Shown piece after piece: positions 14,208 through 36,215 of a stretch of 64,000 nucleotides of DNA (the first letter of the stretch is position 1; the number at the start of each line of letters is the position of its first letter). The notes beneath the pieces are model-generated. The model was not told the origin of the DNA. It saw nothing but the letters and a program-made list of their open reading frames with translations, and made no database searches. The position numbers were made by a program, and so were the translations under genes. Location: IMG/VR virus record IMGVR_UViG_3300037439_000038, positions 3,944 through 67,943 of that record. One strand, written 5' to 3'. This DNA comes from a virus.

Positions 14208-14369
14208 TCAACGGTGCTTTGCTAGTAGTAGACCAGCCTGAACAAAATCACGCAAGTTTTGCAAAGTAATCCGGTATTTAGAGCTATCAGGAATGTGAGT
14301 CAACGTGAGGTGACCATCATCATCTTTGCGTACTGATACAGGATTACCGGCCTTTGATATGAACTGCAT
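14208..14369 (-). CDS. small hypothetical protein (53 aa)
   Basis: start moved to MQFISK behind SD TAGGAG; the longer track ORF runs into the tRNA-like element. Confidence 0.6.
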   Translation of the reverse strand: MQFISKAGNPVSVRKDDDGHLTLTHIPDSSKYRITLQNLRDFVQAGLLLAKHR

Positions 14370-14395
14370 GATATCTCCTAGTTTTGCTGAATTAA

Positions 14396-14466
14396 CGTGC
14401 CTCACAAGGGAATCGAACCCTTCCGCTGCCAGGTGCTAAAGCTGGCATTAGGACCAGTCGTAAGGC
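14396..14466 (-). ncRNA. tRNA-like element A (D-armless, with anticodon-like arm)
   Basis: GCCTTAC/GTGAGGC 7-bp acceptor, TGCCAG/CTGGCA arm, AAGGG-TTCGATT-CCCTT T-arm, trailer ACG. Confidence 0.7.
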
Positions 14467-14609
14467 TTGGTGCTCGACCGCGATACAAAGGGACTTCCCG
14501 ACCATTACCCTTGCCCGTTCGGCCTGCTGATCTCCCTTTTCAGGATTCGGGACATCTGTGCTCGCCTCTAAACTTTATACTGAATAGCTATATGTAGCAT
14601 AGCAATTCG

Positions 14610-14683
14610 CTGCCCTGCTAGGATTCGAACCTAGAACCTACGGGACCAAAACCCGTCGCAGCTACCAATTGTGCTACAGGGCA
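14610..14683 (-). tRNA. tRNA-Gln (anticodon UUG), CCA not encoded
   Basis: cloverleaf: TGCCCTG/CAGGGCA acceptor, D-loop AATTGGT, ACGGG-TT TTG GT-CCCGT anticodon arm, CTAGG-TTCGAAT-CCTAG T-arm, discriminator G. Confidence 0.92.
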
Positions 14684-14769
14684 ATATATTTTGGGATGCA
14701 GTGAGGCTTCCACTCTTCAAAGGGACTCCCGGCCATTATTTTCCGTTAACCCGATACACCCCGGTCTAT

Positions 14770-15459
14770 TTACACTTCCACCTTCTCCGACACCACACTC
14801 ATCCCCATTGCTGCGGTACTCAAATCCATTGCAGCAGAAGAGATTTGGTTCAATAAGCCATCCTTATCATCGGGAACCGCACCGATCCGAACCAGTCGCT
14901 CCCCTAGGCTGCGCACCGATTCCAGAACCTCAAGCAATTCATTTCGCATAATAGATGAATCTGCTTCTGCTGCTTCATCTTCGGTCATTACTGGCTCAGA
15001 GATTCCAAAATCGTCATCGATTGAGTCATCAACAGGTTTTTGCTTCTTTTCCTTCTGCTCTTTCTTTGCCGGGGGATTCTTGGCTAATTGATAGAAGTGA
15101 CTCCAATGAGTTCGTGGATTATCTTCAACTTCAATTGAATCCGCTTCTATATCAATGTCCTCATCGCCAGGTTCGATCTTGTCTGCTGCCGGAACAAGGT
15201 TTGCATGTGCGGCCAGTTCCCAAGCGTCATAGTAGTACTTAACGTGAGAGACAGATACACCAGCGATTTCTGCAAATTGATTAAAACTCAGCTTCGCATC
15301 GGAATCGTTCTCTAGAGAACGATTACTTGGTCGCCCTGCCTTACCAGGAGCACAAGAGCGAGCAACCAGCAGACCAAGCCTCCACCCGCCGCAGCGAACC
15401 CCCACGCCAAACTCAGCTGCATCTCTTTCGATTTGGCTTTGTTCCTTGGCTTTTACCAT
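14770..15459 (-). CDS. putative DNA-binding protein (HTH-like)
   Basis: LSFNQFAEIAGVSVSHVKYYYDAW resembles a helix-turn-helix; start behind AAAGGATGGAA. Confidence 0.6.
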   Translation of the reverse strand: MVKAKEQSQIERDAAEFGVGVRCGGWRLGLLVARSCAPGKAGRPSNRSLENDSDAKLSFNQFAEIAGVSVSHVKYYYDAWELAAHANLVPAADKIEPGDEDIDIEADSIEVEDNPRTHWSHFYQLAKNPPAKKEQKEKKQKPVDDSIDDDFGISEPVMTEDEAAEADSSIMRNELLEVLESVRSLGERLVRIGAVPDDKDGLLNQISSAAMDLSTAAMGMSVVSEKVEV

Positions 15460-15505
15460 TTCCATCCTTTCAAACTAGAACCTTCACACAACGGTACTAC
15501 AGAGA

Positions 15506-15718
15506 TCAGTGATCCTCTAGCAAAACGGTAAATGCTGCCAAGTAAGTAACGCACAGCGAAAAATCATTGTTAGGAATGGTTTTGAGAACATTGTTGCGAA
15601 GATCGCGCCATTCATTCTCGGGAACAACTGAAACGTCAATAACTATTCCAGTTTCATCTGCTAGTTCGATTTTTACGTAACCATCTTTAAGGTCCGTAAT
15701 TTTAACTCGCTCAATCAT
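15506..15718 (-). CDS. hypothetical protein
   Basis: 70-aa ORF with plausible SD. Confidence 0.6.
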   Translation of the reverse strand: MIERVKITDLKDGYVKIELADETGIVIDVSVVPENEWRDLRNNVLKTIPNNDFSLCVTYLAAFTVLLEDH

Positions 15719-15932
15719 TTTCGACCCTTCTCAGATTGCATAGAGTCCCTATACTTGCCGGTCAACTATCCACAACGGCGGGACCAGAAGCCACCATAGC
15801 ACCCTCTGAGATCCACGCCTAGGGCCAATTCTCGGCGTGTCGGCATTTGGACTTTGGTCTAAACGCAGAAAAGCCCTGGCGATCAGTCAACTCATTGTGT
15901 GAATTAACTAATACACCAAGGCTTTTCAACGT

Positions 15933-16088
15933 TTAATCCATCCTCTTGGATTTCTCTGATTTAGATTCACGGATCTGATTTATCAGATCTGAATGAAACT
16001 CCATCAGTTGTTGGTCAGAAATATGCTTGCCGAATCCACGTTGACGAATCTTTCTAGCACGCACTCGTTTTCGCACCTTGTCTCTCAT
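15933..16088 (-). CDS. small basic hypothetical protein
   Basis: start at MRDKVRK gives ATGA overlap with the upstream stop. Confidence 0.5.
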   Translation of the reverse strand: MRDKVRKRVRARKIRQRGFGKHISDQQLMEFHSDLINQIRESKSEKSKRMD

Positions 16089-16273
16089 GTTTTGCTTACC
16101 GCCAAAGTGCCAAATCGTAAGCACCCCTTTCTGAACAAAGGAACAACGGCACGATCAGCGTTGGTCTCCACTGGAATCTGTTGGTTGTCAATGTTTCTCA
16201 TCAACCAAACTAATTGAAGCATCATGTCCTCTGTGTTCTTAACATGAGGGAGATTGATTGTTACAGAGTACAT
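16085..16273 (-). CDS. hypothetical protein
   Basis: 62-aa ORF starting right after the upstream stop. Confidence 0.55.
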   Translation of the reverse strand: MYSVTINLPHVKNTEDMMLQLVWLMRNIDNQQIPVETNADRAVVPLFRKGCLRFGTLAVSKT

Positions 16274-16274
16274 T

Positions 16275-16430
16275 TCAGATCACCCCTTTCTCAACACGGC
16301 AATCTACACACTTACAATATCTGTGGTGTTTGCCATCAAAACCAGGTGTAACCGGCTCATTCATTATCTTGTTCCGGTGCCTCCGCTTTTGTTGAGCAAA
16401 TTTGAAGTCTCGCAACAAATTCTCGAACAT
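16275..16430 (-). CDS. small hypothetical protein (51 aa)
   Basis: translated by hand MFENLLRDFK...HHRYCKCVDCRVEKGVI; preceded by GAGAGGATGGAAAA. Confidence 0.65.
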   Translation of the reverse strand: MFENLLRDFKFAQQKRRHRNKIMNEPVTPGFDGKHHRYCKCVDCRVEKGVI

Positions 16431-16461
16431 TTTTCCATCCTCTCTGCTTTGCACTACCTGT

Positions 16462-16507
16462 GCGCTCCCCGCCGCAGACTCGAACTGCGGTGAATTCCAA
16501 ACGGGGA
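16462..16507 (-). ncRNA. mini-tRNA element B
   Basis: TCCCCG/CGGGGA stem, linker TTTGGAATTCA, CCGCAG-TTCGAGT-CTGCGG, trailer GCGC. Confidence 0.8.
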
Positions 16508-16518
16508 CAATATAACTT

Positions 16519-16677
16519 TCAGAGTGTTGATTGGTTAGCTGTCTTTTTCATGCGACCCGCAACTTTCAAGACTTCATCTGAGATAAAATCTTTTCGGTTT
16601 TGTTGATGTACCAGTCTAACCAGTTCTTCTGCGTAGTCGAACATTTCATCTGCCAGGGTCTTTACTGAATACGTCAT
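16519..16677 (-). CDS. small hypothetical protein (52 aa)
   Basis: translated by hand MTYSVKTLADEMFDYAEELV...; SD GGAG upstream. Confidence 0.55.
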   Translation of the reverse strand: MTYSVKTLADEMFDYAEELVRLVHQQNRKDFISDEVLKVAGRMKKTANQSTL

Positions 16678-16691
16678 CCTATCTCCTTCTG

Positions 16692-16844
16692 TTACCTTGC
16701 TGCCGTGAACTTGTCAGTGTCTGAAAAGCCTTGGGACAGACCGGAATAGTGTCGTGGTAGAGGACAAGCATTATCACTTGTTCTATGTTCACCCAAGGTT
16801 GAACAACACTTTTCACAAAATGTATCCAATTGGTGTTCGCTCAT
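16692..16844 (-). CDS. small Cys-containing hypothetical protein
   Basis: start at MSEHQLD (ATGA overlap), CEKCC...H..C motif. Confidence 0.5.
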   Translation of the reverse strand: MSEHQLDTFCEKCCSTLGEHRTSDNACPLPRHYSGLSQGFSDTDKFTAAR

Positions 16845-17119
16845 CAGCCAATCTCCTTCAAGATTGCCAGAACCATCTTGCGCGCCAATACTTCTGGTAC
16901 CCAAGCATGAATTTCTGCAAACAGTTGCATATGTCCTGAAATCATTGCTCCTACTTGCCAGGACATATGATCATTAGCGCGAACAGCTTTGGCGGTAACC
17001 TTGCCATTTGAAACCGCTTCTACTAAGCAACGATTCCTGACATAAACTTCTACCTCCGGTGGTACTTGAGTGTGGTAGTCAACATCTTTCACTTCAATTC
17101 CTTTCTTAGCAAAGGACAT
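16844..17119 (-). CDS. hypothetical protein
   Basis: 91-aa ORF in operon context. Confidence 0.6.
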   Translation of the reverse strand: MSFAKKGIEVKDVDYHTQVPPEVEVYVRNRCLVEAVSNGKVTAKAVRANDHMSWQVGAMISGHMQLFAEIHAWVPEVLARKMVLAILKEIG

Positions 17120-17421
17120 TCGACCACATCAGACATGAATTGACCAACCTCAATGATCCGCACGGCATCTCCGACAATTCCAGCTTTGTGCAGAGCTTCC
17201 CAAACCCATTCGTTTTCAGAATAATTCTTGATGAAAACGTTTCCAGGTTCGGGTTTTTCACCGTACTGAGCAAGGTTGATGGTAGCGATGCAAAGCTGTT
17301 CTCCCTCAATACTTTTCAGTATCAAGGCGATCGATCCGTCGTTGTAAAAAGATTTTGCAATCTTAATACCCCTTGGTTCATTGATGTATTTGGTTTTGAA
17401 CTGTCTGTTCAAATCCAACAT
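17089..17421 (-). CDS. conserved phage hypothetical protein (DUF4313-like)
   Basis: YNDGSIAL..EGEQLCIATINL..IKNYSENE pattern; preceded by GAGAGGATGGGAA. Confidence 0.6.
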   Translation of the reverse strand: MLDLNRQFKTKYINEPRGIKIAKSFYNDGSIALILKSIEGEQLCIATINLAQYGEKPEPGNVFIKNYSENEWVWEALHKAGIVGDAVRIIEVGQFMSDVVECPLLRKELK

Positions 17422-17447
17422 TTCCCATCCTCTCTGTTTTGTGTCTA

Positions 17448-17491
17448 GCGTGGGTGCCAGGGACTCGAACCCTGGTGTCTGCCAGTCACCC
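17448..17491 (-). ncRNA. mini-tRNA element C
   Basis: GGGTG/CACCC stem, linker ACTGGCAGACA (D-loop-like TGGCAGAC), CCAGGG-TTCGAGT-CCCTGG, trailer ACGC. Confidence 0.8.
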
Positions 17492-17499
17492 TTTCCGTT

Positions 17500-18678
17500 C
17501 TATGCGTTCTGCAAAACCCATTCGGGTTTATTCAGAACTTCGGCCATTGCTGAAACCACGTTGTTGTCAAAACGTTTCGTGGCTCCCCGAATCGTTGCAT
17601 CCATATTCTTTTGGAAGCGGTAGAAATCATCACCATTTAGTTGACGTTTCCGTGTCCAGTGAGTATTGAATGCATGAAGCAATCCAAGGGCAGTACCCTT
17701 GTAATCTGAGCACATCGGATCACGAGTGTATGTATCCCAGAACGCTTCCCTGCGAGTCTTTGCACGGCCAATCTTGGTTGGCGTCGGATTGTCGTCACGG
17801 TCGGGCAACGGAATGATTATATCCATTACCTTAATCGCTTGCCCCCTGGTCACTTTCACGCTGACCAATTCTTTGTGTTCGGCAACGATATCTTTGGCGG
17901 TATCAACCAAGATCTTCATTGAGTCGCGAACCTCTTGTATCCGGTCCCAATCAAGTGATCTTGCAGTGTGTTTCGCTGTGTAAATCATGCCAGCGTTTGC
18001 CGACTGCCTTAAAGCACAATCGCGAGTGTTGTCACACACCACATACAGAGATTGACGCGAAATAGTGGTTGCCATCGAACCGTCTAATGAGGTCGAAATC
18101 ATCATGAACGGAACGAAATTCAAACCAGTACTTGAATCATGCACGCTTTCTGGCAAAGCAACTTGAACGTAAGCTTGCAAGCCTTGTTTCAGAAGTCCAG
18201 CACCAAGAATTGAAAGGTTCTGTGCTCCAATTACTTTGGCCTGCAAGCCAAGTAGCCACTCTTTGTAGTCATGGATTTTATAACCCGATCCATGAGTTGC
18301 TAGATGTGCATGAGTATCTGAGCGCACAATGCCCTGTTCAAGACCGTGAAATTCATAGTCATCTAGTAGTTCGCCATCGGTGCCAGGCTTTTTACGCCAA
18401 ACACCAGTAGGCATAACTTTGAACGGTTGACCTTGTGGCCCAAAGAAATTCGCGTCCTTCTTATCACATGGAATAAGGTTCGCTTTAGGGACTGCCTCAG
18501 CTTCCCAGTTGAACAGGCGGGCAATGACAGTATCCATTTCGATGTAATCATCAAAGTGGTTATCTGCCCATCCTTTTCGTCTGCGAAGCTCAGGATCATT
18601 GTGCCATGCTGCTGGTCGATTGGCACAATTGCCAACCAGTACAAAGCGATTCAATGTCTCCCTAGTTTCTCTACTCAT
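17500..18678 (-). CDS. DUF932 / TIGR03299-like phage protein
   Basis: FNWEAE..P, VRSDT, ISTSLDGS, VVCDNT, YTAKHT, GTALGLLHAFN motifs; start set behind GAGAGGATGGAA. Confidence 0.8.
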   Translation of the reverse strand: MSRETRETLNRFVLVGNCANRPAAWHNDPELRRRKGWADNHFDDYIEMDTVIARLFNWEAEAVPKANLIPCDKKDANFFGPQGQPFKVMPTGVWRKKPGTDGELLDDYEFHGLEQGIVRSDTHAHLATHGSGYKIHDYKEWLLGLQAKVIGAQNLSILGAGLLKQGLQAYVQVALPESVHDSSTGLNFVPFMMISTSLDGSMATTISRQSLYVVCDNTRDCALRQSANAGMIYTAKHTARSLDWDRIQEVRDSMKILVDTAKDIVAEHKELVSVKVTRGQAIKVMDIIIPLPDRDDNPTPTKIGRAKTRREAFWDTYTRDPMCSDYKGTALGLLHAFNTHWTRKRQLNGDDFYRFQKNMDATIRGATKRFDNNVVSAMAEVLNKPEWVLQNA

Positions 18679-18713
18679 TTCCATCCTCTCTTGTTGTCGC
18701 TCATTGTGAGCGT

Positions 18714-18812
18714 CGTGCCTGTCGGGGAATCGAACCACCGACAACTCAATATTCGCATATACGAAAGCTCTTGTCTAGAGCCATGTTTCATTGAGTTGTA
18801 ACCGTTACAGGC
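18714..18812 (-). ncRNA. tRNA-like element D with a large inserted domain
   Basis: GCCTGT/ACAGGC acceptor, AACGGTTA linker, 9-bp CAACTCAAT/ATTGAGTTG helix carrying two hairpins, T-loop TTCGATT, trailer ACG. Confidence 0.75.
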
Positions 18813-18855
18813 GATCACGACAATTCTGACCACAATGTCCTTGCCGTGTTACGGA

Positions 18856-19074
18856 CTAAGCGAGCTTGACGCGATCGCCCATACCGTAAATGAAAACACG
18901 AGATCGTTTGCCTCGCTTGGGAACGGGGATCAAATACACGTGAACCTCTTTACCATCAACAACTTGTGGTATGCGGGTCACCTCCCAAGTTCCATCAGCA
19001 TCGGTGAATTGATCACCAACACGCAACCTACGAACGTAGGCAGTTGCGCGAAGCTCTGCTGTCATGTTTGCCAT
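18856..19074 (-). CDS. small beta-barrel (SH3-like) hypothetical protein
   Basis: LRVGDQF motif; start behind GAGGATGGAA. Confidence 0.65.
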   Translation of the reverse strand: MANMTAELRATAYVRRLRVGDQFTDADGTWEVTRIPQVVDGKEVHVYLIPVPKRGKRSRVFIYGMGDRVKLA

Positions 19075-19113
19075 TTCCATCCTCATTTCTTTTGTGTGCC
19101 AAGGGGTTTGGCA

Positions 19114-19159
19114 GCGTGCCCGGTAGAGGAATCGAACCTCTACCAAGAACCATTCGGGC
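19114..19159 (-). ncRNA. mini-tRNA element E
   Basis: GCCCG/CGGGC, linker AATGGTTCTTG, GTAGAGG-TTCGATT-CCTCTAC, trailer ACGC. Confidence 0.82.
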
Positions 19160-19335
19160 TATTTACACTTGTGCTCTCTTCTCAGGTTGTACGGGATAGA
19201 TCTATCAAACCAAACAAACTGTCCCAGTGAGCTTTTCAACCAGCCACAGTAAAGGCACTCCACATAGAAGCATCGAATGCCAAAAGCCATTTTGTACCTG
19301 ACTTTTACTTTATCCGATTTTTGGTGTGTAACCAT
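19159..19335 (-). CDS. small hypothetical protein with CxxC
   Basis: ECLYCG motif; start uncertain (internal Met chosen). Confidence 0.4.
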   Translation of the reverse strand: MVTHQKSDKVKVRYKMAFGIRCFYVECLYCGWLKSSLGQFVWFDRSIPYNLRREHKCK

Positions 19336-19555
19336 GCGGTCCCATCGTTCCGGGGATACCGTCAATTGGTGTCCAAAAGTTGCCTGGCACAGGTGGATTG
19401 GCTGCACACGGTGACCAAGGTACTGTAGCAATATAGCCACAACCGGGATTCGGAGTCTGTGTTTGTGCGTTGGATCTAATCGCTAAACCTATTGATGCAC
19501 CAATGATTAACGATGCAATCATTAGCGACACAACCGCACTGATTTTATTGTTCAT
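19310..19555 (-). CDS. secreted or membrane-anchored small protein
   Basis: signal-peptide-like MNNKISAVVSLMIASLIIGASIGLAI followed by Pro/Gly/Cys-rich domain; start behind GAGAGGATGGA. Confidence 0.7.
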   Translation of the reverse strand: MNNKISAVVSLMIASLIIGASIGLAIRSNAQTQTPNPGCGYIATVPWSPCAANPPVPGNFWTPIDGIPGTMGPHGYTPKIG

Positions 19556-19582
19556 TCCATCCTCTCTTTGTGAGTGTTTCCC

Positions 19583-19628
19583 ACGCTCCCGCCGTTGGAA
19601 TCGAACCAACGTGAAAACCATTGCGGGA
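19583..19628 (-). ncRNA. mini-tRNA element F
   Basis: TCCCGC/GCGGGA, linker AATGGTTTTCA, CGTTGG-TTCGATT-CCAACG, trailer GCGT. Confidence 0.85.
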
Positions 19629-19637
19629 CACCACGAT

Positions 19638-19790
19638 TTACATATGACCGATCTCTCCGTAGTCGGAGGAATAACTCATTTGAACTGAATGAGATCCGCT
19701 AAAGCTTTTGATAACTTTTTCGACCTCTTTCTTAAGTTCCTTTGCTGTAGCTGCTGTTTCATGTTCTCCAACATGAATTACGATTCTCAT
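19638..19790 (-). CDS. small hypothetical protein (50 aa)
   Basis: translated by hand MRIVIHVGEHETAATAKELKKEVEKVIKSF...; start overlaps the upstream stop. Confidence 0.55.
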   Translation of the reverse strand: MRIVIHVGEHETAATAKELKKEVEKVIKSFSGSHSVQMSYSSDYGEIGHM

Positions 19791-20194
19791 TCATGATCCT
19801 TTGATTTGTGGCCGTATTTCTTACAGACTCCACACGGTTCATAATCTCCATGATGAAAATATGCTTTCTGAATTACCGTGTCCCACCATGCATCTGAGAA
19901 CGATTCCTCGTATGCGTCGATTAGTTTATCGTGGTAGTCCTTCGGTACCGCAGGATCAAAGCCAAGTTCTTTGAGAACGCTGTAAGTTGTTGGGCCACCG
20001 GCAAATTCACCAGACAGCGGAGAGGGACAAAGATCGAGTATCTCGGGATCACCGTCTTCAAATCCCTCAATGATCTTGGCGCAGTACTCTTTTGAGTTAG
20101 TTGAGTCAACAACCCAAGCACCTAACATTTCGCCGTATTCCTTGCCCATTTCTACTGCCTTGCTGGTCATTTCGTCAATGCCAACTGTGCTCAT
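19787..20194 (-). CDS. acidic hypothetical protein (PLSGE motif)
   Basis: start MSTVGID behind GAGAGGATGGAAAA. Confidence 0.7.
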   Translation of the reverse strand: MSTVGIDEMTSKAVEMGKEYGEMLGAWVVDSTNSKEYCAKIIEGFEDGDPEILDLCPSPLSGEFAGGPTTYSVLKELGFDPAVPKDYHDKLIDAYEESFSDAWWDTVIQKAYFHHGDYEPCGVCKKYGHKSKDHE

Positions 20195-20227
20195 TTTTCC
20201 ATCCTCTCTTGTGCCCATCGTGGGCAA

Positions 20228-20271
20228 CGTTCCCCGGTAAGGAATCGAACCTTACGAAAACCATTCGGGGA
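20228..20271 (-). ncRNA. mini-tRNA element G
   Basis: TCCCCG/CGGGGA, linker AATGGTTTTC, GTAAGG-TTCGATT-CCTTAC, trailer ACG. Confidence 0.85.
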
Positions 20272-20279
20272 CACCATGA

Positions 20280-20591
20280 TTAACTCACCAATAACCCTTC
20301 AACACTCTTACGCCAGCTTTCCAGGTTTTCCACTCGTTCCTCAAGTGTTCTTTTATCCTGCTCAGGCGAGACCGACGGAATTTCGCTGTGCTCATTGGTT
20401 TTTCCCTTCCCATGAAACATGTTGTGATTCTCGCTTGGCTTACCAATTGCTTTGCTCACAGATCCGTTGATATTCAACGTCATTCGACCATGGTTATCTG
20501 TGAGAACAGTGATTGAATCACCGTCGTCCACCTTGGCAAGAAAACCCTTGAGATAGTAAAGGTCTCGACCTTCAATCACGACTTCATGCAT
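20280..20591 (-). CDS. hypothetical protein
   Basis: start MHEVVIEG behind GAGGATGGA. Confidence 0.65.
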   Translation of the reverse strand: MHEVVIEGRDLYYLKGFLAKVDDGDSITVLTDNHGRMTLNINGSVSKAIGKPSENHNMFHGKGKTNEHSEIPSVSPEQDKRTLEERVENLESWRKSVEGLLVS

Positions 20592-20632
20592 TCCATCCTC
20601 ATTTCTCAACTGCGCCAAGACATTTGACGCAC

Positions 20633-20675
20633 AGTACCCGCTCATGACTCGAACATGAGTGTATGCCTTTCGGGC
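20633..20675 (-). ncRNA. mini-tRNA element H
   Basis: GCCCG/CGGGT, linker AAAGGCATACA, CTCATG-TTCGAGT-CATGAG, trailer ACT. Confidence 0.78.
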
Positions 20676-20682
20676 TGTCTTA

Positions 20683-20886
20683 CTAGCTAAATTCCTCTTC
20701 TATCATTGGTTGATAGTTCGACCATGGCTCAGGTTGCCCACGGTCGAAAGAATCCAGCATTTTGTTGAGCAGACCAAGAGCATATGCAGCTTTGTCTAGC
20801 GCCATAGCGCCAAGATAAAAACTAATATCCGCAATTGCCTTGTGTATCTGCTTCTTTCGGCTTAGATCTGGCTGAATGTTTTTCAT
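20683..20886 (-). CDS. hypothetical protein
   Basis: start MKNIQPD gives ATGA overlap with the upstream stop. Confidence 0.55.
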   Translation of the reverse strand: MKNIQPDLSRKKQIHKAIADISFYLGAMALDKAAYALGLLNKMLDSFDRGQPEPWSNYQPMIEEEFS

Positions 20887-21095
20887 GCGGAAGCCGTTCC
20901 TTTGACGTATCCGAAACTGTCCAAGCCGCAAGCCTCAAAGAAGTAGTCATACCTGAACTTTGAAGCATCACGTTTGAGCACGTCGGCTGTTTTTCTGACA
21001 CAATGAGCGACCGTATCAGAGCAGGTGTCATCTCTGGACAAAGCAAGCGAAAACTCTTCTGCTAGTTCGCAATACAGTTTTCTGGTTGCAGCCAT
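20883..21095 (-). CDS. conserved small phage protein
   Basis: LKRDASKFRYDYFFEACG resembles the common phage '..DNPRFD..RF..ACG' motif; start behind GAGAGGATGGAAAA. Confidence 0.7.
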   Translation of the reverse strand: MAATRKLYCELAEEFSLALSRDDTCSDTVAHCVRKTADVLKRDASKFRYDYFFEACGLDSFGYVKGTASA

Positions 21096-21126
21096 TTTTC
21101 CATCCTCTCTTGTGCCCGTTTGGGCA

Positions 21127-21172
21127 GCGTAGCCAGGGGAGGAATCGAACCTCCCTGAAAACCGTTCTGGCT
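21127..21172 (-). ncRNA. mini-tRNA element I
   Basis: AGCCAG/CTGGCT, linker AACGGTTTTCA, GGGAGG-TTCGATT-CCTCCC, trailer ACGC. Confidence 0.85.
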
Positions 21173-21180
21173 TACCATGA

Positions 21181-21384
21181 CTAAATCAACTGCACTCTGG
21201 TGTCAGCTTTGAATCGACGCCGTGTCTGATTTGATGGCGTATCGATCTTGACTATCGGAACCTGAATCGTTCCGTCGTCACGACGACCAACAGGAAAACC
21301 GTTGCACTGCAATCCCTCTCCGGTACGGGGATCAACAAAACGGTCGCCCTTGCGCAGACGTGCCATATTGCTTGACTTTCTCAT
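21181..21384 (-). CDS. small beta-barrel (SH3-like) hypothetical protein
   Basis: LRKGDRFVD motif; start behind AGAGGATGGAAACC. Confidence 0.65.
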   Translation of the reverse strand: MRKSSNMARLRKGDRFVDPRTGEGLQCNGFPVGRRDDGTIQVPIVKIDTPSNQTRRRFKADTRVQLI

Positions 21385-21424
21385 GGTTTCCATCCTCTAT
21401 CTTACTACTACGTCTGGTGACGTA

Positions 21425-21468
21425 TGGTGCGCCTAGTGGAATCGAACCACTACGAAAACCGTTGGCGC
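21425..21468 (-). ncRNA. mini-tRNA element J (encoded ACCA end)
   Basis: GCGCC/GGCGC, linker AACGGTTTTCG, TAGTGG-TTCGATT-CCACTA, trailer ACCA. Confidence 0.85.
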
Positions 21469-21474
21469 TCTTGC

Positions 21475-21744
21475 CTAATTCAAAATGGCTAGGTCGAACT
21501 TGTGGGAGTAAACATTGCGACTGCAGTTGTCGCACATGAATTCCTGTTTGTCATCACCTGTGCAATCGTCTGGGCAAGCGATAACCTTGTGACCGTCTGG
21601 AAGTTCGGCAGCGCTTGCCTCTACGCCTGCTTCCCATTCGGCACGATACTCAGGACCATAAAAATCGAGTCCTGATGTATCCCCATTGGCAATTGCGCAA
21701 GCGCAATCATCGCAGCAATGTAGTTCGCCAATGACAGTTGCCAT
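21475..21744 (-). CDS. Cys-rich acidic hypothetical protein (first early gene)
   Basis: CCDDCAC..IANGD and CDNC motifs; start behind GAGAGGATGAGGAAAA. Confidence 0.7.
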   Translation of the reverse strand: MATVIGELHCCDDCACAIANGDTSGLDFYGPEYRAEWEAGVEASAAELPDGHKVIACPDDCTGDDKQEFMCDNCSRNVYSHKFDLAILN

Positions 21745-21850
21745 TTTTCCTCATCCTCTCATTTTTGGGGAAAACCCCAGGTTGTGACCAGGGCATTAAG
21801 AGTACATAATGCCTGGTAGAAAGCCCATTAATGGGCCTGTAGTCCATTCT

Positions 21851-21904
21851 GAGACACCTTATAAAAAAGTGACTATTATAGGCCCTAAGAAAAACTGAAG
21901 TCTC
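21851..21904. promoter_or_regulatory. candidate bidirectional SigA-type promoter
   Basis: minus-strand TATAAT (21880-21875) with GAGACT 18 nt upstream; plus-strand GAGACA-17 nt-TATTAT (21851-21879); GAGAC/GTCTC inverted symmetry. Confidence 0.55.
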
Positions 21905-22690
21905 TGAGCATTCTAATGCGTGCCGTTATGGCGATTTATTCTGTTGAACCACTGGCCTGCATAGATCCTATGCAAACTAGTGGCGCAACGGAAAACCGTT
22001 ACGCCGAGGATGGATGGAATTAGGTTGCAGTGCAATCGATTTGGCGCGGCCAACTTGACGAATTGTCTTGTCTACCAACGTCTTACAAACCTTGCTTACT
22101 CTGCTAACCTCGCGACATAGATCGTCGCGTGCTGCTCACGGTGGTTGAATACTATCCCGATCAAACCAGGTCACTAGCTGTCGCTATATGCCGGGCACCT
22201 ATTTGGTGACTCCCGTTGTCTCTCGGTTATCGGCAGATGGAATGCGGGTAGCTCTTACGCTTAAACACGTTGCAGCAGAACACTATTCAGAATATCTATC
22301 GCACGAAAACCGTTGCGAGACAATAACTCTCGTATCGGTAGACTTGCACTTGATATTCGGTTTTAGATGGATGCCACCCACCATAGGGAATCGCTTTGAC
22401 TACAGACACTCATTCAATCCAGCGTGTTTAGCATGGTGGATTGATCCTGGTGTACCGTCATACCCTCCCGGTTTCCGGCCGGTCGGGAACGCTTGCTTCC
22501 GATATACGATTGCGATTGCTCATACCGACCGCTCACATCATTGGAACGATAGAACAATCTCGCTTTGATCAAACGTCGGCGCGCTACCGTCCAACTAAAA
22601 CGATTCTAGGTTTGCGACCATTGTCGAATCCTGGCACTCACGCGCGTACGTTTGAACTACGGAAGTAGTTCGCTTGCGATTCCCTATTTA
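21886..22690. ncRNA. candidate large structured non-coding RNA (~800 nt)
   Basis: no credible ORF; nested long-range helices (perfect 12 bp 22383-22394/22676-22687; 22070-22076/22337-22343; 22030-22035/22344-22349; 22569-22576/22648-22655) and many hairpins. Confidence 0.65.
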
Positions 22691-23002
22691 GTTCTCAAAT
22701 AAACACACTTCAACCTCTATACTACCAAAACCCCACCAAACCGCAGGTGAATGAGATAATCTGTTATTAGAATGAGGTCTAATAGGACCTATAATCCCAG
22801 GTCAGAGCATGTGACGGAAATCACACTATTCATTTCACACTGTTGGTCCAACTGTTGATTCTACTGTAAGACCAACGGGACTCAGTTAATCCTAGCTAAC
22901 TAAATAGGTACGAATCATCTTGTGCCACAAGGCATTTGAAATTTGAAAACCCTTGCACAACAACAACTTTCAAACTTGACACCTGTCAAGTTCAACTTTC
23001 GC

Positions 23003-35783: not shown

Positions 35784-36215
35784 TTATGTCCAGGCCCAAC
35801 CGCTCCAAGTGCCTTCCCAGCGTCTACGCTGAGCACCTTTAGTGTTTCCATCCATTGACCAAAAACGTTGAAAGATAACAAGATTGCCAGACAATTGACA
35901 AGTTACAATCATAATAAACACTGGACCGCTATTACCTGGCACATTGTAGGTATTTGGATCTGGGGCATCTCCGTTTAAAAAAGAACCACCAATCCAGAAA
36001 AATCCTGGCGTAACAAGACTATTGAAATCAACTGGATCAGTAATCTGTGGAACCGCTAAATCAACAGTTGAGATAGAAGAAAGTAAAGCAGTTAAAGCAG
36101 CATCTTGCTCTACATCCTTAACCTCTTGTTCTTCCAGTTCATTTGAAGCAGCCGTCCATTCAGCAGAGGTTAGCTGATCACCCGTTGATTTCGGCTTAGG
36201 TACATAATCAGGCAT
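35784..36215 (-). CDS. minor tail-associated protein
   Basis: K..GDQLTSAEW N-terminus and pyocin-knob-like C-terminal domain (FNSLVTPGFFW...IFQRFW). Confidence 0.55.
   Translation of the reverse strand: MPDYVPKPKSTGDQLTSAEWTAASNELEEQEVKDVEQDAALTALLSSISTVDLAVPQITDPVDFNSLVTPGFFWIGGSFLNGDAPDPNTYNVPGNSGPVFIMIVTCQLSGNLVIFQRFWSMDGNTKGAQRRRWEGTWSGWAWT

Follow-up and report, generated by a model that had tools for sequence, protein, structure and literature searches.

Mini-tRNA elements between the genes of actinophages: a covarying RNA family with a possible role in transcript processing

Ten tRNA-like elements lie between small genes in a 64,000-nt stretch (hereafter the window) of the phage genome IMGVR_UViG_3300037439_000038 from IMG/VR, eight of them reduced to an acceptor stem, a short linker and a T arm. 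The evidence supports the view that all ten are selected, structured, sense-strand mimics of tRNA. They belong to a large family that is common in sequenced actinophages, occurs in prophages of four phyla and carries no annotation in the phage records we examined. We regard it as roughly an even bet that host RNase P, RNase Z or RNase E, together with the CCA-adding enzyme, read these mini-tRNAs as cis-acting modules for processing and stability. A sequence-only reading of the window had listed the ten elements and placed all of them on the coding (minus) strand; both the positions and the strand were borne out by the computational analysis described here.

Structure and covariation of the mini-tRNAs

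The eight short elements are about 44 nt long and share one plan: an acceptor stem of 5–6 bp, a linker of the form N3-GG-N5-6, a 6-bp T stem and an R-C-N trailer. Folded alone, each adopts a 5–6 bp acceptor, a bulge of 10–11 nt, a 6-bp T stem and a 7-nt loop, and folding together with a structure scanner confirmed the proposal that they are acceptor/T-stem minihelices joined by a GG-containing linker. The features of canonical tRNA that they keep are the T loop TTCRANN, the invariant closing pair G53:C61, GG at linker nucleotides 4–5 and a stack of 11–12 bp. The T-loop motif that had been noted from the letters, G-TTCGA-N-TC, occurs 11 times in the window, exclusively on the minus strand (once per element and once in a true tRNA-Gln), and never on the plus strand. 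Scanning both strands of the 64 kb for the structure returned exactly the eight short elements plus one artefact within the tRNA-Gln, where about one match is expected per shuffled window. A covariance model (R1), searched with filters off, recovered the same eight at E values from 5e-12 to 1.5e-6, and no other match reached a comparable E value in the window or in the whole 72-kb genome. Standard tRNA calling with ARAGORN and the Rfam models reported only the tRNA-Gln in the window, and none of the ten elements reached E<10 with any Rfam model.

The sequence-only reading had proposed compensatory change in the stems and had named homologous loci as the place where that idea could fail; covariation there proved very strong. 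Among 56 hand-picked members, both sides change in 11 of the 12 stem pairs, with a covariation score of 0.871 versus 0.175 for shuffled sequences, the rows of this set having been chosen by their pairing. In 132 members aligned by the model, no cell of the five inner acceptor pairs is unpaired, as many as six pair types are used, and pairing in the T stem reaches 99.9%. At the third acceptor position, sets of 55 and 120 distinct members show CG, GC or UA pairs and not a single GU.

The linker is constrained as closely as the stems. A stem-and-T-loop scan that did not require GG nevertheless found it at linker nucleotides 4–5 in 284 of 298 unique members, and nucleotide 5 is G in all 281 unique copies with an 11-nt linker, the set on which contacts between linker and T loop were counted. 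Linker nucleotide 9 and T-loop nucleotide 7 (tRNA nucleotide 60) covary as A-T in 182 copies, G-C in 43, C-G in 11 and T-A in 4, with 6 wobbles and 35 T.T combinations (mutual information 0.80 bits); every T.T case belongs to the type 1 linker subtype. The neighboring positions, linker nucleotide 10 and T-loop nucleotide 6 (tRNA nucleotide 59), are C-G in 239 copies and G-C in 4, and linker nucleotide 4 faces T-loop nucleotide 2, the analogue of G18:U55, as G-T in 267 and A-G in 11. The nucleotide 9/nucleotide 7 pair lies outside the covariance model and recurs on the model alignment (AU 80, GC 16, CG 4, UA 2, GU 4). The type 2 linker (ACYGGCAGACA) forms its own Watson-Crick pairs with T-loop nucleotides 59–60. 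From this linker/T-loop covariation it follows that the linker rebuilds the tRNA elbow and adds a two-pair mini-helix. In real tRNAs the T-loop bases at nucleotides 59–60 bulge out. The Watson-Crick tertiary pairing of linker nucleotides 9–10 with T-loop nucleotides 60–59, newly seen here, thus appears from comparative sequence data to define a dedicated elbow fold.

The window elements, lettered A to J from low to high coordinates and all on the minus strand, illustrate how freely sequence varies within this frame. Type 1 linkers occur in five of the eight short elements. J (21425–21468) carries the type 1 linker AACGGTTTTCG, the T loop TTCGATT and an acceptor plus T stem of 5+6 bp (R1 58.3 bits, E 5.9e-11), and it begins 6 nt past the stop codon of gene 21744–21475. 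I (21127–21172; type 1, 6+6 bp, 54.6 bits) begins 8 nt past the stop codon of gene 21384–21181. H (20633–20675; linker AAAGGCATACA, loop TTCGAGT, 5+6 bp, 53.1 bits) could pair linker nucleotides 9–10 (A, C) with loop nucleotides 7–6 (T, G). G (20228–20271; 46.8 bits) and F (19583–19628; 51 bits) are both type 1 with 6+6 bp, the linker of G being 10 nt long. E (19114–19159; 39.2 bits, E 1.5e-6) has the type 1 variant AATGGTTCTTG and 5+7 bp; the roughly 150 nt that separate it from the stop codon of gene 19555–19310 (19160–19310, minus strand) contain no open reading frame (ORF) led by a Shine-Dalgarno (SD) sequence. C (17448–17491; type 2 linker ACTGGCAGACA, loop TTCGAGT, 5+6 bp, 62.9 bits) is 100% identical over 42–43 nt to unannotated intergenic DNA of the Streptomyces Arquatrovirinae (R4-like) phages phiScoe10, phiScoe2 and Verse. 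B (16462–16507; linker TTTGGAATTCA, loop TTCGAGT, 6+6 bp, 44.8 bits) has a near twin in Mycobacterium phage Fowlmouth with the linker TTTGGAATTAA.

The remaining two elements keep the acceptor/linker/T-arm frame of the short ones and add an inserted arm (A) or domain (D). D (18714–18812) has the acceptor GCCTG/CAGGC, the linker AACGGTTA, an inserted three-helix domain of about 60 nt and a T arm with one bulged T; it folds at −34.7 kcal/mol (z −4.2) and is followed by a DUF932 gene. At the equivalent junction in Cuke and Fowlmouth the same design recurs with other acceptor stems and an encoded ACCA. A (14396–14466) folds as a D-armless tRNA-like element that combines a 7-bp acceptor and a 5-bp T stem with the 12-nt linker GACTGGTCCTAA and an anticodon-like arm; run in its mitochondrial mode, ARAGORN renders it as a tRNA with a D-replacement loop and anticodon UAG. 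We also considered A as a decayed copy of the Cuke tRNA-Lys, but by eye, without a formal alignment, there was no evident likeness.

Gene module and family distribution

The elements occupy a fixed place in a module that runs from stop codon through mini-tRNA, hairpin and strong SD to start codon, an order kept across unrelated phages. The suggestion that they sit close to stop codons held: the gap is 6–11 nt for seven of the window elements, and over the 281 unique copies it has a median of 9 nt (interquartile range 7–15) against 67 in a random control, with 128 of 263 spacings in the peak at 5–9 nt. From element to the next SD-led start the median is 44 nt. Most copies are followed by a hairpin whose sequence varies and which begins 1–5 nt past the acceptor; 87% fold better than shuffles. 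Within the window, a hairpin and then the conserved AGAGAGGATGG ribosome-binding site follow eight of the ten elements, as the sequence-only reading had indicated. Genes directly after an element carry an SD of this conserved type, and junctions with an ATGA overlap have no element.

Seven of the window hairpins, all on the minus strand, were delimited. Those after J (21409–21424, starting 4 nt past the acceptor, −6.7 kcal/mol) and H (20611–20631, −10.0 kcal/mol) flank the one after I (21113–21126, −8.2 kcal/mol, z −3.4); further along lie those after G (20212–20226, −8.5 kcal/mol, z −2.8), F (19570–19584, −4.8 kcal/mol, z −3.0), E (19097–19113, −6.8 kcal/mol, z −3.8) and D (18698–18712, −7.6 kcal/mol, z −4.9). 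An identity as intrinsic terminators was rejected, since what comes after the trailers ACG, ACT or GCG is another hairpin and then an A-rich spacer, not a U tract. Scanning the window for promoters and terminators gave nothing above shuffles and matched no element.

The 3' boundary is also conserved. The trailer, A (or G) then C, has C as its first letter in 259 of 281 copies; in the window it reads ACCA in J, ACG in I, G, E, D, C and A, ACT in H, and GCG in F and B. The tRNA-Gln of the window ends in GCG, in agreement with the R-C-G trailer that the elements had been said to share with it, and the same A-C-N type of trailer follows the phage tRNA-Gln and host transfer-messenger RNA (tmRNA) genes that do not encode CCA. 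An encoded ACCA was seen in J and in the D-type elements of Cuke and Fowlmouth.

Beyond the window the family is large. Searching with one element by blastn found 599 places in 139 GenBank phage records (113 Streptomyces, 25 Mycobacterium, 1 Gordonia), and none of the 40 matches listed had a feature annotated under the element. Two exact patterns retrieved 146 IMG/VR stretches, with 79 and 276 R1 matches therein. The type 2 pattern was also present at 23 places in bacterial genomes of Actinomycetota, Bacteroidota, Gemmatimonadota and Planctomycetota; those we checked look prophage-like: the Botrimarina locus has a TerL gene, the Bacteroidales locus encodes a MuB-like AAA_22 protein, and copies are clustered. 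A sample of 150 other Actinomycetota genomes gave no match, at the low sensitivity that comes with 41 candidates scored per genome. We counted 9 copies in phiScoe10 (in a 6-kb right-arm stretch), 6 in Sujidade, about 13 in Cuke, about 8 in Fowlmouth, about 12 in Send513 and about 8 in Oaker. Across six annotated phages the copies always lie on the coding strand and are nearly all intergenic, few being overlapped by an annotated coding sequence (CDS). Not one of 147 loci has copies on both strands. Orthologous junctions retain an element although the stems, and even the linker subtype, differ: the counterparts of window element J are at Cuke 6694, Fowlmouth 8456 and Oaker 10289, and a protein that is 80% identical is encoded upstream of each.

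Several individual loci deserve mention. The gp043 and gp044 CDSs of Cuke (stretch L011, 8430–8994) and the gp47 CDS of Fowlmouth (record positions 35846–35889) overlap mini-tRNAs, and their start codons have probably been called too far upstream. An Amycolatopsis antarctica prophage (L071, 6879–7270) and its IMG/VR copy (L080, 6612–7003) hold four tandem mini-tRNAs at intervals of about 115 nt, too close for genes to fit in, in the manner of a tRNA array; a dense cluster of the same kind occurs in stretch L101. A Bacteroidales genome (L184, 5708–5749; L185, 5766–5807) has two type 2 mini-tRNAs of low G+C content, each about 30 nt upstream of its own gene for a protein of 663–710 residues that has no Pfam match; a MuB-like AAA_22 protein follows in L184, the copy that was scanned, which suggests that these elements sit in Mu-like transposable prophages. 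In Gryllotalpicola koreensis (L056, 7043–7157) a tRNA-His gene directly adjoins a mini-tRNA of the same strand, an arrangement that suggests co-transcription and co-processing of the two. Finally, a metagenome-assembled genome of Janthinobacterium lividum (L070, 1085–1169) encodes an 85-nt full-length tRNA with the anticodon UUA, which reads the stop codon UAA; it lies directly after a tRNA/tmRNA-type 3' end, and the type 2 linker motif, as CTGGCAGACA, stands immediately 5' of its T stem.

Candidate roles and comparison with known systems

We place the cis processing module first among the candidate roles because RNase P, RNase Z and the CCA-adding enzyme recognize the elbow, the 11–12 bp stack and the A-C 3' end. 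The bacterial forms of these enzymes accept acceptor/T-arm minihelices as substrates. In the proposed mechanism, the elements would be transcribed within the polycistronic message of the small-gene region, where the acceptor and T arm would stack coaxially over 11–12 bp and the 11-nt linker would dock on the T loop to form the elbow. Host enzymes that measure the distance from elbow to acceptor end could then recognize them: RNase P would cut on the 5' side, RNase Z or an RNase E-type activity after the discriminator and before the conserved C, and the CCA-adding enzyme might extend the new end. A cut past the discriminator would leave the upstream cistron with a tRNA-like 3' cap and the downstream cistron with a protected 5' end, starting 2–5 nt before the hairpin and followed by the strong ribosome-binding site. 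A 5'-terminal hairpin stabilizes bacterial mRNA, and each product might differ in stability or translation from the uncut message. A universal host partner fits the occurrence of the family in phages and prophages of four phyla and the lack of a recognizable tRNA-processing enzyme gene in profile searches of the genes of this phage. Four points weigh against the proposal. The helix has 11 bp in most members rather than the canonical 12, and a cut by RNase P would leave the upstream mRNA with a tail of 5–10 nt and an unprotected 3' end. About 4% of copy-to-copy spacings are below 150 nt, as in the Amycolatopsis prophage, and a purely punctuating role fails for such tandem arrays because there is no room for genes between the copies. 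The near-constant spacing past the stop codon, moreover, could reflect an interaction with the terminating ribosome.

That spacing is the chief attraction of an uncut structure acting at the end of the cistron, where it would meet the mRNA entry channel of the terminating ribosome and serve in insulation, in termination and re-initiation, or in shielding the untranslated spacer from Rho and nucleases. The sharp peak at 5–9 nt matches the distance at which downstream structures act on the ribosome, as in stimulators of frameshifting and read-through, and the elements occur only at translationally uncoupled junctions, each followed by a strong SD. Any stable hairpin would do for such a task, however, and the invariant T loop, GG, tertiary pairs, A-C trailer and occasional ACCA, all features of tRNA enzymes' substrates, would go unexplained; we consider this role improbable. 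Somewhat better placed, though still unlikely, is an action in trans, in which excised mini-tRNAs of about 44 nt would be decoys or sponges for a host factor that recognizes the elbow and acceptor end of tRNA or tmRNA, either SmpB, blocking trans-translation, or a defence toxin directed at tRNA acceptor ends, a scheme that would still need a processing step. The type 1 linker followed by TTCGATT is almost the D-loop analogue AACGGTTTCGAC of an actinobacterial tmRNA, that of Kribbella, followed by the same T loop, the first eight letters of the linker matching. Mycobacteriophage DS6A encodes a tmRNA reduced to its tRNA-like domain (TLD), and a molecule of similar kind reportedly inhibits tmRNA, with titration of SmpB as a conceivable mechanism (PMC4131195). 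Tandem arrays in which no genes separate the copies would suit a decoy, and 8 to 13 copies per genome would mean a high dose. Yet the alanine identity pair G3:U70 never occurs at its position, and the mini-tRNAs lack both structures that border the T arm in tmRNAs and in DS6A, helix 2 and the GGAC strand. Without an anticodon arm the elements cannot be decoys for anticodon nucleases, and since their acceptor stems vary freely no single tRNA is mimicked. A decoy also leaves the fixed place 5–10 nt past the stop codon and the hairpin/ribosome-binding-site module unexplained. A combination of punctuation and decoy, in which host tRNA-processing enzymes would punctuate early transcripts and release in many copies an elbow fold built with an 11-nt linker and shared by phages of at least four bacterial phyla, aimed at SmpB and trans-translation or at MenT/AbiEii-type toxins that modify acceptor ends, has in our judgment a small chance of being right.

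Linker/T-loop tertiary contacts disfavor both remaining explanations, duplex-DNA sites and decay relics. Elements acting as DNA, whether boundary repeats for cassette exchange, stoperator-like repressor sites or tRNA-derived miniature mobile elements, would account for the 43-nt copy that is identical between this phage of 44% G+C and Streptomyces phages of 65–70% G+C, and for subtype swaps at orthologous junctions. The elements also adjoin stoperators in R4-like phages, where, as in cluster A, these are asymmetric DNA motifs of 13–16 bp, TGTGCAAGTGTNGC in R4 (PMC10276819). We rejected an identity with stoperators: the published R4 motif differs from the element, and the element covaries in the manner of RNA. 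All copies at a locus lie on one strand, and tolerance of G-U wobbles together with all four Watson-Crick types at the tertiary pair points to a folded single strand, not a duplex site; terminal repeats and target duplications did not come to light, though no systematic search was made for them. We judge a DNA-level or selfish origin very unlikely. That the elements are functionless remnants of a former phage tRNA array is scarcely credible: a true tRNA-Gln lies nearby and A and D resemble intermediate forms, but random decay would not leave 281 unique copies with a single precise architecture, compensatory changes, a dedicated tertiary pair and fixed junction positions across phyla.

Among described RNAs, the TLD of tmRNA and its DS6A counterpart come closest, sharing an acceptor/T-arm stack without D stem or anticodon arm, a single-stranded D-loop analogue whose GG docks on the T loop, and a gene trailer of the form A-C-N. 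The mini-tRNAs differ in having no G3:U70 pair and no mRNA-like domain, an acceptor of 5–6 rather than 7 bp, type 2 linkers that pair Watson-Crick with T-loop nucleotides 59–60, and many copies per genome inside operons. The tmRNA D-loop analogue, A-A/C-N-GG-UUUCGAC, is accompanied by helix 2 with its 3' GGAC strand ahead of the T arm; this helix and strand are missing in all short mini-tRNAs, whereas the DS6A sequence retains G3:U70 and a stub of helix 2. Other parallels concern processing. Plant mitochondrial t-elements (Forner et al. 2007, PMC1920247) set the 5' and 3' ends of mRNAs by way of RNase P and RNase Z, the logic that we propose for the phage elements. Like these elements, and like tRNA punctuation in mitochondria generally, the mini-tRNAs are acceptor/T-arm mimics within an mRNA and adjoin a coding region; unlike the plant elements, they occur in phages and bacteria, are unrelated in sequence, possess a defined linker that forms an elbow, are coupled to a hairpin and ribosome-binding site downstream, and are so far only proposed to be cut. 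Signals of the mascRNA/MALAT1 type (RF01684) are tRNA-like folds in a long transcript that are cut by RNase P and RNase Z and receive CCA; mascRNA is eukaryotic with a full cloverleaf-like fold, in contrast to the phage elements with no Rfam match at E<10. Phage transcripts that borrow host tRNA-processing enzymes include the M3 RNA of phi80, the C4 antisense RNA precursor of P1 and P7, and the species 1 and 2 RNAs of T4. Those are single genes or members of tRNA clusters, as opposed to a repeated anticodon-less module between protein genes. YrlA and other bacterial Y RNAs, some encoded by mycobacteriophages, have a tRNA-mimicking T arm and D-like elements (PMC4201824), but they have a Ro60-binding stem and an adjacent rsr gene, and the phage elements have neither that stem nor an Rfam match. 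By sequence and predicted fold, then, the mini-tRNAs appear to belong with tRNA-like processing or mimic elements. The impression that no phage system of this form had been described withstood our search: we found no account of the family in Rfam (at gathering thresholds and at E<10) or in the searchable literature, including PMC10276819, PMC5311408, PMC10690425, PMC4201824 and PMC4131195.

Phage setting and significance

The source record is a 72,393-bp virus genome that CheckV rates complete; the window covers its bases 3944–67943, has about 44% G+C and carries all long ORFs on the minus strand. The source DNA was found in sediment metagenome runs; look-ups for RNA runs with the window or the phage Endor1 locus found none. 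Its large terminase protein is 72–74% identical to those of the Mycobacterium phages Cuke, Indlulamithi, Fowlmouth and MrMiyagi, and profile searches identified a cutinase-type lysin B, an SNF2 helicase and a DnaE polymerase. Because of these terminase relatives and this gene content, we assign the phage to the siphoviruses of a mycolic-acid actinobacterium. The gene order is Cuke-like: structural genes come first and lysis genes next, then about 0.9 kb without ORFs, the small genes, tRNA-Gln and finally the replication genes. The gene map and upstream sequences delimit the small-gene run at 14208–21744 (minus strand), with about 20 same-strand genes punctuated by the elements; Pfam and PHROGs recognize DUF932 and families of unknown function there and nothing else. 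This region had been called an early operon. Its location between the lysis cassette and the replication genes stands, while "early" is a reading of that position. The tRNA-Gln (anticodon UUG; 14609–14683, minus strand; ARAGORN, and Rfam at 60.6 bits) does not encode CCA, and its counterpart in Mycobacterium phage Labelle shares 97% identity with it.

Two further features lie in or next to the small-gene run. In the ORF-free stretch upstream of the small-gene run (21790–22700, minus strand), AACGGTTTTC is present twice on the minus strand, where a minus-strand transcript would carry it in the same sense as the mini-tRNA linker and not complementary to it, and one copy forms the loop of a TCGCA/TGCGA hairpin. 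Hairpins lie at 22299–22318 and at about 21981–22008, R1 gives only a weak match (21978–22006; 11 bits, E 4), and comparable ORF-free gaps occur at the same place in Cuke, Send513 and Oaker. Within the run, a long near-perfect hairpin (15856–15940, minus strand), which surfaced through spurious microRNA-like Rfam matches, occupies a 215-nt gene gap without a mini-tRNA; it may be a terminator or a processing site that splits the run.

To our knowledge, tRNA punctuation of messages has so far been known from mitochondria and a few eukaryotic transcripts. If RNase P, RNase Z or the CCA-adding enzyme does read these elements, such punctuation would be a widespread phage strategy by which one transcript yields separately stabilized and translated mRNAs. 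The family is missing from Rfam and from phage annotations, and some annotated CDS starts run through its members. As a minimal natural way to build a tRNA elbow, backed by a covarying tertiary pair, the fold is also of interest for RNA structure, and it may offer a compact processing tag for synthetic operons. Hundreds of copies are at hand in cultured, easily engineered phages of Mycobacterium smegmatis and Streptomyces.

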